64,000 nucleotides of DNA from Candidatus Bathyarchaeota archaeon. GTDB taxonomy: Archaea > Thermoproteota > Bathyarchaeia > 40CM-2-53-6. Location of the stretch: contig CAVPLU010000013.1 of assembly GCA_963706285.1 (NCBI GenBank), positions 64,001-128,000 of the forward strand, given 5' to 3'. The position numbers and the translations under genes were made by a program. Within the stretch, counting starts at the first letter, position 1; each line of letters opens with the position of its first letter. The notes beneath the pieces were generated by a model. The model ran no database searches. It saw nothing but the letters and a program-made list of their open reading frames with translations, and was not told where the DNA came from. Below, one piece after another: positions 4,492 through 59,017 of the stretch.

Positions 4492-4692
4492 GTATCGAGT
4501 ATCTCATATCTGGGGAGGCTGTTCCAATACCTGCAGGCGTTCGAATCTGATGGGTCCGCCATCTCCTTGACCAAGAAATCGCCTTCAACTTTCGTCACGC
4601 GCAATTTCTTATGTGAGTAGACGTGGTCTTTTCTCTAGGTCGGTTTTTTATCGCCAGTCTGACTCTAGCATACGCGTGAGGCGAGTGGCGTT

Positions 4693-29368: not shown

Positions 29369-29517
29369 TGCGGGGGGTGGGATTCGAACCCACGAAGGCC
29401 TACGCCACGGGATGACTCACCCGCGCTGTGGGCTTGGTCTTGAGTGTGGCGCGCGTGGTCAGGACGCGACCCGCCCATCTAGCCAGACGCATGTTGACCT
29501 GGCTCTGGGACCCCCGC
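29369..29517 (-). tRNA. tRNA-Leu(CAA) with three BHB introns (21/22, 30/31, 37/38)
   Basis: Removing 29479-29493, 29446-29469 and 29414-29438 gives GCGGGGG TC CCAG AGCCAGGTCAA ATGG G CGGGA CTCAAGA TCCCG TGGCGTAGGCCTTC GTGGG TTCGAAT CCCAC CCCCCGC A. Confidence 0.9.
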
Positions 29518-29634
29518 GTTTCATTGACACGAGCGATCTGCATTCTTCAGCTAAAGGCTTACCGCTACCGTGACAGTTGTCCATTCGAGCGGAACAGTAT
29601 CCTGACAAGAATTGGATGAAAACCGCGAGCGTCG

Positions 29635-32222: not shown

Positions 32223-32547
32223 GACGGTGGCGGCATCCCCAAGTGATGGACACAGTTTCCTTCCACGGTTTTTCAGATGCTTTCTATACCCTGTGATCCT
32301 ATCAGCGCCAGCATGTCGACCTTACGACTGCCCTCTTCCGAGTCTCGCCGGGTTCGGCCGCAAAGAAGTCGACCCTTCCCTTCGGAAGAGCCTCTTCCTC
32401 CACCGGCCCGGTAGGGCAGGATTTCATCGTTGGCAACTGAAGCCTATGAGAGGAACCAAATGCCTCTCCCTTGAGTTAACGGATCCCCGCGTAGAGCCGA
32501 TTTCGGGTAACAAGGAACGGCTGACTCCTCGATCCCCCACCACCGCC
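32223..32547 (-). ncRNA. ffs: Archaeal SRP (7S) RNA
   Basis: ~325 nt; terminal helix GGCGGTGGTGG/CCGCCACCGTC; helix 6 GGCTCTTCC-GAAG-GGAAGGGTC; helix 8 CTC-GGAA-GAG flanked by AACC...TAAG. Confidence 0.85.
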
Positions 32548-46594: not shown

Positions 46595-46620
46595 GTAGAC
46601 CTCTTAAATGATAAGCTCAG

Positions 46621-46755
46621 GTTTCACCGCGGGCAAGAGTCCAGGGTTACCCGAGCTCCCGCCCTGTCGCCCACGACACTAACACGCGAACTTCATCGAG
46701 GGGCGTCGCCCCACTTGGTCGGCTCTCTCGGGGGTGGGCTGTTTCTGGTGCCTGC
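46621..46755 (-). ncRNA. Candidate structured RNA (H/ACA-like or tyrS leader)
   Basis: GC-rich intergenic stems GCCCAC/GTGGGC followed by GACA; GGGCGGGAG/CTCTTGCCC with G-U pairs on the minus strand; GATGA motif. Confidence 0.45.
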
Positions 46756-46782
46756 AGAGAATATGTTCTCAGCTGAATTAGA

Positions 46783-48484: not shown

Positions 48485-50011
48485 CTAGACTAGCTCCTGC
48501 TTCCTCAGCCAATTGAGGTCTTGAGAGAAGAGCGTGCGCATGTCGTCGATTCCGGCCTTCATCATGAAAAGGCGCTCGACACCTAGGCCCCAGGCTATCA
48601 CTGGCACTTCAATTCCGAGCGGGATAGTGAGTTCCGGTCGGAAGATGCCGGACCCTCCAAACTCAAACCAGCCCACTCCTTCTTTGTATGCCTGAAGCTC
48701 AACGCTAGGTTCTGTGAACGGGAAATAGTCTGGATTGAACTTGACTTTGTCCGCGCCAGCTATGTCTAATGCAAATTTCTCTAATACACCCAGCAAATCT
48801 CTGAGGGTTAGATCCTCACCGACGACTATTCCTTCAACTTGATTGAATTCTGTAAGATGCGTCCTGTCGACTTTGTCTGGGCGGAAGCACCTAGCTATCG
48901 AGAAGTACTTGCCTGGGATCTGCAACTCCTTGCTGACTAGGGTTCTTGCACTCTCGGCGGTCCCGTGGCTTCTAAGAACCAGCCGAGAAGCTTCGGTCGT
49001 GGAGTAGGGGGCTCTCCAGCCTGTTGATCCCGTCTTCCAGCCGTTCTCATGCGTCTCCTTCACGTTGTCAAGAAACGCAGCGAAGGGTGCAGAGTCTCCA
49101 TGCTCCGGCGATTTTACCAGGTATATGTCGTGGACCTCGCGTGCCGGATGATCTTGGGGCATGTAAAGCGCGTCGCAGTTGAAGAACATTGATTCAACGA
49201 TGGGGCCTGTCATCTCTCTGAAGCCGAGTGCGATTAGCTTCCACTTGAGTTCGTCTAGGAATCGTCTGTATGGTTGTTTCTTGCCTGGCCAATATGGAGC
49301 TACTTCGGCTTGCACATCATACTTTCTCAGTGTGTTTTGACGCCAGCTTCCTGTGGCCAACATTTCAGGTGTTAGGCTGCTGGTCTCGTGCTGAACTGCA
49401 ATTCCTTGCTTCACGAGGCTCATGCCCTCCGGCGTGATCGATACGACCTTGTCTGCTCGCTCGCGGAGGGTCAATAGCCTTCTCTGCTTCAAGACTTGAA
49501 GCTCAACCTTATCCGCGGAATCTAGGGCGGACAAATCGGTTCCTTCAGATTCCGAGAGTGTGTGAAGCACTTTCTCGTCGTTTGATACCTCAGCTACTTT
49601 CTCCGCGATTATCATCGTCGCTCCGTCGGACTTTTCGAGCTTAGCCCAGCCCTTCTTCTTGAGCCATCCATAGACCACCGGAAGCATATCCGCTGGCACC
49701 TGTGCCAGATGGGCTGCCTCGGATGCTTCCATTCTCCCTCCGTGATCGACTACCGTTTTGACGATCCTGCGCTCGGGCAATCCTCTCTGCGAGTAGTCTC
49801 GACCTTCTGTTGTAAGAGAGGCTAGTGAAACAGGTTCGTCCTTGACCAATGCGTAGCCTCGCTCGGCGAGTGCAAGGGCCGCTCGTATCACGGCGGCTTC
49901 CTCAAGTCCGGTTTCGGCTGCAACCTCCACCGACTTGGACGGCCTTTCTAGCTTTCCGAGTGCTTGAAGAGTTCTAGCTTCATGATCTCTGAGTTCTATC
50001 ACAGTCACCAC
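48485..50011 (-). CDS. pheS: Phenylalanine--tRNA ligase alpha subunit
   Basis: PQDHPARE, THLTEFNQ, YFPFTEPS, GSGIFRPE. Confidence 0.96.
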   Translation of the reverse strand: MVTVIELRDHEARTLQALGKLERPSKSVEVAAETGLEEAAVIRAALALAERGYALVKDEPVSLASLTTEGRDYSQRGLPERRIVKTVVDHGGRMEASEAAHLAQVPADMLPVVYGWLKKKGWAKLEKSDGATMIIAEKVAEVSNDEKVLHTLSESEGTDLSALDSADKVELQVLKQRRLLTLRERADKVVSITPEGMSLVKQGIAVQHETSSLTPEMLATGSWRQNTLRKYDVQAEVAPYWPGKKQPYRRFLDELKWKLIALGFREMTGPIVESMFFNCDALYMPQDHPAREVHDIYLVKSPEHGDSAPFAAFLDNVKETHENGWKTGSTGWRAPYSTTEASRLVLRSHGTAESARTLVSKELQIPGKYFSIARCFRPDKVDRTHLTEFNQVEGIVVGEDLTLRDLLGVLEKFALDIAGADKVKFNPDYFPFTEPSVELQAYKEGVGWFEFGGSGIFRPELTIPLGIEVPVIAWGLGVERLFMMKAGIDDMRTLFSQDLNWLRKQELV

Positions 50012-54005: not shown

Positions 54006-54132
54006 GGGGTTGGCAGCTGTCCAAGTTTCGCGTGGCCTTGCGGAACACACTACTGCCTGAATCGCCTGGGAGATTCACTTCCGTGTTCGGAATGGGAACG
54101 GGTCCTAGCTCCCAGCTATGGCCGCCAGCTCC
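54006..54132 (-). rRNA. rrf: 5S rRNA (stand-alone)
   Basis: GGCGGCCATAGC...ACCCGTTCCCATTCCGAACACGGAAGTGAA...GCGAAAC...GCTGCC. Confidence 0.95.
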
Positions 54133-56376: not shown

Positions 56377-56597
56377 TGGTGGGGCCGAAGGGATTGTCAT
56401 GGCGTGCCGCCATTTTGAACCCTCGACTTCCGCCGTTTTTCTTCGTCTACGGGTTTCTCCCGCGCTCCGGAAGATCGTCATCCCACATGGTCAGCAAACC
56501 CGTTGCATGCCAAAGGCTTCTGGAGCCCTTAACGGGGGTTGTCCTGTCGTCATCCCTGGCTAGATTCCGCCGAACCTTGATCATCGCCTACGGCCCC
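56377..56597 (-). tRNA. tRNA-Trp(CCA) with five BHB introns (10/11, 28/29, 37/38, 45/46, 59/60); CCA encoded
   Basis: Splicing out 56565-56587, 56529-56545, 56455-56519, 56428-56446 and 56394-56413 gives GGGGCCG TA GTCT AGCCAGGGA TGAC G ACGGG CTCCAGA CCCGT AGGTC GAGGG TTCAAAT CCCTT CGGCCCC A CCA. Confidence 0.88.
56455..56519 (-). ncRNA. Intron-encoded box C/D guide RNA of pre-tRNA-Trp
   Basis: ACGGGTTT-G-CTGA complementary to AAACCCGT (target C39); ATGACGA then CTTCCGGAGC near-complementary to GCTCCAGAAG (target C34). Confidence 0.75.
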
Positions 56598-56647
56598 ACT
56601 GGACGACGACGCTCTGGCCCCACCGAGCTAGACTCGCACGCGAACAA

Positions 56648-58674: not shown

Positions 58675-59017
58675 CCTGCTTGCTCTTGGTATAGAATTCT
58701 TGAATCTTGGCGGCGGAATCATCCTTGCATCAGGTTTGATTGTATCTTCCGTCGCCAGACTCTGGTCTGCCACGCGGCACAGGACCTAGATTCGAAGAAG
58801 AACGCCAATGACCTTCCAAATATTCACGATTCGAACCCTGAAAGCCTACCATCGCAGGCGCCGGAGTGTATATCACCGCCAAGTTCATGTGCATTTGTAG
58901 GCTTTGCAGCAGACGGAACGATCCTATCAAGAGTGTATCTGCGGGAGAATCCTTGGCATGAAAACTGATACAAGAGCGATAAAACTCGATACTGAGAGAA
59001 ACGCCGGACATGATGAG

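Follow-up and report, generated by a model that had tools for sequence, protein, structure and literature searches.

The closest described counterparts of the gene analysed here are the multi-intron tRNA genes of the Thermoproteales, for example those of Pyrobaculum calidifontis, which share with it up to three BHB introns per gene, micro-exons, relaxed motifs, non-canonical intron sites in the D arm and anticodon stem, and the need for an (alpha-beta)2 EndA. For P. calidifontis one paper counts 71 introns over 46 genes, and it gives an average of 0.84 per gene for the Thermoproteales and 107 non-canonical introns for the Thaumarchaeota (PMC8450103); the Thaumarchaeota (Nitrososphaeria) belong to the TACK group, as does the present host, and likewise carry non-canonical BHB introns. 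An EndA of the (alpha-beta)2 type has been tied to non-canonical introns in two further papers (PMC5829648; PMC12397907). In the Asgard archaea, again as here, nearly all tRNA genes are interrupted, many of them at least twice; many of the introns lie in the D arm, and the interrupted genes escape standard tools. Two preprints put the interrupted share at 97%, with up to five introns per gene (bioRxiv 10.64898/2026.10.13.758758), and at 92-95% (bioRxiv 10.1101/2023.11.21.568159).

Three-intron tRNA genes are a well-known kind, and it is the host lineage that appears undescribed for such a load. Our study reports on a tRNA-Leu(CAA) gene in a 64-kb stretch of DNA (the window) from a member of the Bathyarchaeia. 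From the sequences of the gene, its relatives and the candidate enzymes, we consider it very probable that this is a working gene whose three BHB introns would be cut by a heterotetramer-type EndA, and whose exons would be joined by RtcB to give an 85-nt class II tRNA. The neighbouring aEF-1alpha has 94%, 92% and 83% identity (and lower) to Candidatus Bathyarchaeia/Bathyarchaeota archaeon records, and NCBI taxonomy places the class Bathyarchaeia in a phylum of its own, outside the Thermoproteales; together these support the claim of an earlier note on this DNA that the host is a non-Thermoproteales archaeon.

Anatomy of the tRNA-Leu(CAA) gene

The gene lies 117 nt downstream of a row of S7, aEF-1alpha and S10, on the same strand (Table 1). 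Removal of the three introns in silico leaves an 85-nt product that ARAGORN calls as tRNA-Leu(CAA), whereas the 149-nt unspliced precursor is rejected by the same program. The earlier note had placed a 15-nt intron at 21/22, a 24-nt one at 30/31 and a 25-nt one at 37/38, with a 7-nt exon between the second and the third, and the coordinates and the splicing in silico bear out each of these details. The spliced cloverleaf has a 7-bp acceptor, a D stem with a G13.A22 pair, a 5-bp anticodon stem, a long variable arm and a canonical T arm; the long variable arm, the anticodon CAA and A73 are those of a class II tRNA-Leu. The unspliced gene gives no match to RF00005, even at E<=10, and at that threshold the only Rfam match in the gene region is a partial tRNA-Sec-like one over the T arm and acceptor. 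No other tRNA-Leu(CAA) was detected in the assembly.

Table 1. Coordinates of the tRNA-Leu(CAA) gene and its parts in the window.
Feature	Position	Strand	Description
tRNA-Leu(CAA) gene	29369..29517	-	149-nt precursor; position 1 = 29517, discriminator A73 = 29369; CCA not encoded
exon 1, 24 nt	29494..29517	-	positions 1-21: acceptor 5' strand, U8, D-stem 5' strand, 11-nt D-loop
intron 1, 15 nt, at 21/22	29479..29493	-	G18-C20a pairs with intron nt 10-13 (central helix)
exon 2, 9 nt	29470..29478	-	positions 22-30
intron 2, 24 nt, at 30/31	29446..29469	-	central helix: 25-28 with intron nt 19-22
exon 3, 7-nt micro-exon	29439..29445	-	positions 31-37, anticodon CAA inside
intron 3, 25 nt, at canonical 37/38	29414..29438	-	central helix: 32-35 with intron nt 20-23
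exon 4, 45 nt	29369..29413	-	position 38, anticodon-stem 3' strand, long variable arm, T arm, acceptor 3' strand, A73

BHB motifs and their chance level

The introns were sought with a home-made depth-first solver that skips a segment only if the BHB geometry fits and requires a cloverleaf at the end; the spliced products were judged by ARAGORN alone. In the register used, four exon nucleotides pair with four intron nucleotides, the former stopping 2 nt short of the 5' cut and the latter 2 nt short of the 3' cut; the strict rule demands a 4-bp central helix and one outer helix of at least 2 bp. A T-arm-anchored search of the gene returned a single solution, identical to the three introns of the earlier note, and a search that did not assume an intact T arm returned the same one. 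Of the 5589 start/end pairs within the gene, 138 (2.5%) form a correctly registered 4/4 helix and 43 (0.77%) satisfy the strict rule; all three of the sites dictated by the cloverleaf do so. The register is present at all six cut sites, the central helices named in the earlier note (GGTC/GGCT, GGCG/CGCC and CTCA/TGAG) being paired 4/4 in each case, and when one or the other cut site is displaced by 1-2 nt the central helix is usually lost. Each motif has, as follows from the register, two 3-nt bulges on opposite strands that each hold a cut site: AA|C and AG|A for intron 1, GG|T and AC|A for intron 2, and AG|A and TC|A for intron 3; the letters of the bulges differ between relatives.

None of the three motifs is of the strict hBHBh' form with both outer helices of at least 2 bp, the values of (h,h') in the genomic context being (3,1), (1,5) and (1,2) in order; since each has just one good outer helix, they are relaxed forms. 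The intron-side helix of intron 2 has 5 bp and closes a 7-nt loop. The exon-side helix of intron 3 reaches h = 5, as the anticodon stem, only after intron 2 has been removed. Counting against the proposed motifs, a minimum free energy (MFE) fold of the whole precursor contains none of the BHBs, and they are likewise absent from local MFE folds of the three intron segments (z -0.7 to -0.9).

The motif of intron 1 is the weakest, its 4-bp central helix including two G.U pairs and its exon-side helix of 3 bp standing without an intron-side helix. In its local MFE structure, D-loop nucleotides 14-19 form a competing 7-bp hairpin with the 3' part of the intron, which can thus pair in two ways, with G18-C20a in the BHB register or with nucleotides 14-18 in the competing hairpin. 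The weak motif and the preferred hairpin would suit a gene in which just the insertions at 30/31 and 37/38 are spliced, and the 15-nt insertion at 21/22 either stays as part of an oversized D-loop or leaves the gene partly defective. We give this alternative a small chance. An oversized D-loop of 26 nt would be incompatible with the geometry by which G18G19 meet the T loop, which argues against retention, and further evidence on it comes from the orthologues described below.

The boundaries themselves might also lie elsewhere, with intron 3 at 38/39, or with intron 1 cut 4 nt upstream so as to leave another 11-nt D-loop. Cuts at 37/38 and 38/39 yield the same product and are indistinguishable in it, because intron 3 starts with A and the next exon letter is also A; for intron 1 the alternative 15-nt excision, judged by eye, again leaves a loop of 11 nt. 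The BHB register nevertheless agrees with 37/38, and the alternative excision in the D-loop would make exonic those letters that vary among relatives and would leave a loop different from that of the orthologues lacking the intron. We therefore regard shifted boundaries as very improbable and retain those of Table 1.

Conservation among orthologues

In a search of the family's 59 genomes with the 149-nt gene as query, the matches in other genera are longer than in the genus of the window, at 176-182 nt. The comparison set consists of 33 distinct Leu(CAA) orthologues out of 35 loci, some of them from named records. Intron 2, with lengths of 22-54 nt, is found in all 33 with its central helix paired 4/4 throughout. 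In its 24-nt form, represented by 10 distinct sequences, every one of 100 cells is paired, three pairs are changed on both sides and the covariation score is matched by none of 500 shuffles; two-column slides still pair 75-77% of cells because the helix is a CG repeat. Intron 3 is likewise universal in the set, at 20-61 nt, its central helix being paired 4/4 in 13 orthologues and 3/4, with a U33.U mismatch that counts against the motif, in the other 20. In loci L094-L113, from the genera g2, g3 and g5, intron 3 is enlarged to 53-61 nt, and many copies show, by eye, an internal hairpin, along with a U33.U mismatch in the central helix.

Intron 1 is the variable member of the three. It occurs in 28 of the 33 orthologues, with lengths of 11-16 nt, and is missing in five (L009, L114, L115, L015 and L017), two of which, L114 and L115, come from genomes of genus g4, the other three being named records; the 21/22 intron of Leu(CAA) is present in four genera and absent from a fifth, a sister genus. 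Its competing hairpin is paired 5/6 or 6/6 in 26 of the 28, which speaks for the reading that the insertion is retained, and the pair between exon position 16 and its intron partner shows compensatory change (C-G in 8, T-A in 19 and T-G in 1), the exchange of C-G for T-A running between genera. Set against this, the BHB helix is paired 4/4 in all 28, by way of four variants (GGCT, GGCC, GACC and GACT), and the exon-side helix keeps its 3 bp in all 28, while the letters of the loop and bulge vary, the 3' bulge dinucleotide freely so (AG, TG, AC, AT and AA). Moreover, in the relatives that lack the insertion the D-loop is identical to that of the spliced product, and the 21/22 site also holds an intron in three tRNA-Ala genes of the host genome.

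One locus of a more distant Bathyarchaeota record, L017:4342-4475, loses its similarity to Leu(CAA) right after TTCGAATCC, which suggests that this orthologue may be interrupted once more, within the T loop or T stem, by an additional intron.

Public sequencing runs and the integrity of the locus

The stretch is present in 20 runs of 14 studies labelled wetland, peat, soil or sediment, as small shares of the sampled words. Contigs of two RNA libraries, X15 and X19, each from a different study, run through all three introns in unspliced form: record 15 of X19 spans 29384-29520 with 3 differences, and records 2-4 of X15 cover the same region. These contigs may derive from DNA or from relatives. 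The RNA runs X15, X16, X18 and X19, represented by assembled contigs only, hold no joint across any intron and, being assemblies, cannot show a mature tRNA.

That RNA support for the mature product is absent from these assembled contigs, and that standard finders miss the locus, would also be expected of a decaying tRNA pseudogene or an assembly artefact, with UUG being read by tRNA-Leu(UAA). We hold this to be highly improbable on several grounds. Full 149-nt matches at 90-98% identity occur in 7 of the 9 other genomes of the genus, and two named records that match at 97-98% identity, one of them truncated at 144 nt, probably belong to those genomes; contigs from independent public runs contain the locus, and the three-intron plan is retained in other genera of the family. 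The exons together keep a perfect cloverleaf, and among six aligned sequences of the genus all 23 variable columns fall within the 64 intron columns and none within the 85 exon columns (Fisher p 2.4e-10).

Splicing enzymes and a model for maturation

The profiles PF01974 and PF02778 match two ORFs of the genome, one of 186 aa on contig C12 (alpha) and one of 174 aa on contig C6 (beta). The alpha protein is closest to crenarchaeal catalytic subunits (S. tokodaii 2cv8, E 4e-40; A. pernix 3p1z_B, 1.6e-37; 2zyz_B, 4e-31) and has the catalytic Tyr/His/Lys motifs; the His is marked by the A. pernix His-to-Ala mutant chain 3ajv_B. Across the Crenarchaea-specific loop the alignment of alpha to 2cv8 is free of gaps, whereas that to 3p1z_B/3ajv_B contains one; Lys 39 of alpha, in a conserved Lys-Pro, falls opposite the A. 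pernix loop lysine. The beta protein is a full-length two-domain protein that has the same fold by alignment, with its Tyr and His replaced by other residues, and its best sequence matches are chains from M. kandleri and M. jannaschii. The earlier note had proposed the architecture of EndA as a check; what emerges is a catalytic alpha with the Crenarchaea-specific loop together with a non-catalytic beta, and the predicted enzyme is of (alpha-beta)2 architecture with that loop in alpha.

The RtcB ligase of the genome (G000:C4:105729-107043) lies in two overlapping frames that cover profile positions 1-243 and 236-426. It is also split in one related genome, G002, and whole in 5 of the 9 genus relatives; the break is either a frameshift or an assembly error. 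It falls in a genome where every tRNA needs ligation.

These data suggest a model for the maturation of tRNA-Leu(CAA). The gene would be transcribed as a 149-nt precursor, from which the three BHB introns would be excised by an EndA composed of the catalytic alpha, with its Crenarchaea-specific loop, and a structural beta. The exons of 24, 9, 7 and 45 nt would then be joined by the RtcB ligase into the 85-nt class II tRNA. Intron 2 probably leaves before intron 3 or together with it, because the anticodon stem is contiguous only without intron 2, and because the central helix of intron 2 also uses nucleotides 27-28 of that stem.

The remainder of the window

The earlier note held that both tRNAs in the window are intron-rich and that two tRNA genes share eight introns. 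Neither statement could be confirmed: the scans of the window recovered only tRNA-Leu(CAA), and the introns confirmed within it are three, in this one gene. ARAGORN in default mode calls no tRNA in the whole 64-kb window, and Rfam finds no second one across it, either at the gathering threshold or at E<=5. A scan of the window for T arms and acceptors gave Leu(CAA) only, as did a partial scan for acceptor pairs (902 of 1137 pairs tried, 377 of these timed out), and a scan for D-arm motifs gave nothing tRNA-like. T-loop-like sites near 58837 and near 4521-4560 do not read as tRNA, and two GC-rich non-coding islands, 46615-46759 and 56532-56645, yield no tRNA on either strand, whether the solver is run in its strict or its relaxed mode.

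The window holds other candidate and recognised RNA genes. The non-coding island 46615-46759 has a G+C content of 70% and a weak H/ACA-like Rfam match (HgcG, E 2.1); the ORF downstream of it looks, by eye, like a class I aminoacyl-tRNA synthetase. At 56460-56645 (-) a TATA-like TTAAATAT is followed by a G+C-rich transcript-like stretch, with weak matches to C/D-box sRNAs (sR40, E 1.3; sR19, E 2.3), and an sR55-like match of 23.1 bits lies at 49196-49250 (+). At the gathering threshold Rfam identifies just two RNAs, an archaeal SRP RNA at 32225-32545 (-) (161 bits) and a 5S rRNA at 54008-54129 (-) (80.6 bits), both uninterrupted in contrast to the tRNA genes.

Intron load of the host genome

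The assembly to which the window belongs comprises 21 contigs with a total of 2.13 Mb, at a completeness of 89% and a contamination of 7.5%. Rfam finds 17 tRNA matches in it, and all 13 full-length ones above the family cut-off are 88-129 nt long. ARAGORN makes three calls without introns, none of them credible, and 25 calls with one intron allowed. A scan for T arms with a 7/7 acceptor partner gave 44 anchors, several of them spurious, and since the shortest candidate span is 88 nt, no detectable tRNA gene is intron-free. Of 42 candidate spans no longer than 180 nt, the strict solver combined with ARAGORN resolved 28, compared with 1 of 126 interior-shuffled controls.

For the census the solution with the fewest introns was taken at each locus, and two duplicates on contig C20 were dropped. 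The 24 distinct loci so solved hold 46 introns: seven genes have one, twelve have two and five have three. The search across the genome that the earlier note had called for finds one to three introns in each of these 24 genes. Both the count and the resulting 1.9 introns per gene (46/24) are lower bounds, because at least one of the choices (a tRNA-Met) is better solved with two introns, because the unresolved spans are longer, and because eight relaxed-mode solutions (with 1-4 introns, many of them ambiguous) are uncounted. About one third of the expected isoacceptors went unrecovered by this anchor-based census, presumably those with introns in the T arm or acceptor stem; the tRNAs for Asn, Asp, Gln, Glu, His, Ile and Trp are among the missing ones.

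The intron sites of Leu(CAA) recur elsewhere in the genome, with 37/38 used in 15 genes, 30/31 in 7 and 21/22 in 4, the last being three tRNA-Ala genes and tRNA-Leu(CAA). Among the other Leu genes, CAG has two introns and TAA and TAG have three each. In the tRNA-Ala genes with anticodons GGC, CGC and TGC (C4:155275, 371617 and 398079) the 21/22 intron begins with GCC and ends with GGCCGAA, and each gene also has an intron at 37/38; the shared 21/22 intron is either older than the split of the isoacceptors or has spread between the genes.

The duplicated loci of the census are a tRNA-Met and a tRNA-Thr, at C20:1503-1610 and C20:9025-9127, with counterparts at C4:222230-222337 and C4:230576-230678. 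The Thr copies differ in two letters, both within the 37/38 intron, and the duplication fits a strain mixture, given the contamination of 7.5%. Three spans of about 282 nt (C10:555-837, C11:548-829 and C15:29405-29686) end in a tRNA-like T arm and acceptor; they have the T loop TTTGATA and no tRNA solution, two of them lie near contig ends, and they are possibly a repeat element.

Intron load of the lineage

The extent of the load beyond the host genome was assessed by proxy only, from the Rfam tRNA matches in each genome. The 10 genomes of the genus have 123 such matches (6-18 per genome), 97 of them full-length. By hand count from the listing, 7 of these 97 are 78 nt or shorter, five of them from a single genome with 6% contamination, where they occupy two contigs, and the remaining two from a second genome. 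Across the order, 31 genomes have 6-29 matches each at E<=0.001. In a sample of the class comprising 61 genomes, all at least 90% complete save that of the window, the matches at E<=1e-12 number 0, 2, 2 and 1 in four genomes of the family and 0-9 in 12 other genomes of the order, versus 2-28 (median 15, hand-counted) in 45 genomes of other Bathyarchaeia orders. Distant Bathyarchaeia loci have intron-free 75-nt tRNAs beside S10.

From these counts per genome, and within the limits of the proxy, the load appears strongest in the family and order of the Leu(CAA) host and not uniform across the class. The lineage-wide intron expansion suggested in the earlier note is in this sense borne out, with few Rfam matches in the genus, family and order relative to the other Bathyarchaeia orders. 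The Leu(CAA) gene is probably one instance of a load on every detectable tRNA gene of the genus, which the proxy extends to the family and order.

A broader reading, which taken as a whole we put forward tentatively and hold to be rather doubtful, is that an entire family, perhaps an order, of soil and peat Bathyarchaeia is as intron-loaded as the record holders among the Asgard archaea and more so than P. calidifontis, with every gene interrupted and about two introns per gene; that the load is still changing; and that the 21/22 intron is maybe a switch of splicing order or a footprint of intron acquisition. The last element comes from the 3' part of that intron, which can pair with two overlapping registers of the D-loop, one of them with compensatory change; the intron may therefore act as a conformational switch for the order of splicing, or bear the mark of how it was acquired.

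Comparison with known systems

In the literature searched, with most subscription papers and supplements outside its scope, we found no paper on tRNA introns in Bathyarchaeia. The class name is absent from the accessible text of one Asgard preprint (bioRxiv 10.64898/2026.10.13.758758), and in that of the other (bioRxiv 10.1101/2023.11.21.568159) Bathyarchaeia are named only in a community list and not for tRNA introns; one review has the phylum only in a footnote on TACK, and the Hirata 2019 review makes no mention of it. With every detectable tRNA gene interrupted, the lineage is an apparently undescribed case of heavy tRNA-intron load.

The predicted splicing enzyme resembles the crenarchaeal (alpha-beta)2 EndA (2cv8, 3p1z, 3ajv and 2zyz) in having two paralogous subunits of about 180 aa, the alpha with Tyr/His/Lys; the present proteins are at a level of only 40-45% identity to these enzymes, and their assembly and activity are predicted. 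Closely related genera of this lineage differ by the gain or loss of a single intron, a scale fine enough for testing by what route BHB introns spread, and the lineage is also suited to testing the co-evolution of introns with an EndA of broad specificity, a breadth that is predicted here.

Standard finders miss almost all tRNA genes of these abundant peat and soil archaea, and therefore quality checks of MAGs that count tRNAs, and inferences on codon usage and translation, will be wrong for the lineage. Unlike the Thermoproteales, which are hyperthermophilic crenarchaea, the present host is a Bathyarchaeia MAG from mesophilic habitats, and the Asgard archaea belong to a different phylum from it. 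Compared with P. calidifontis, its 24 strictly solved genes have 46 introns (1.9 per gene, a lower bound) and none was detected intron-free. After the Thermoproteales and some Asgard archaea, these Bathyarchaeia are a third, independent case of massive tRNA-gene interruption, and one from mesophilic habitats.
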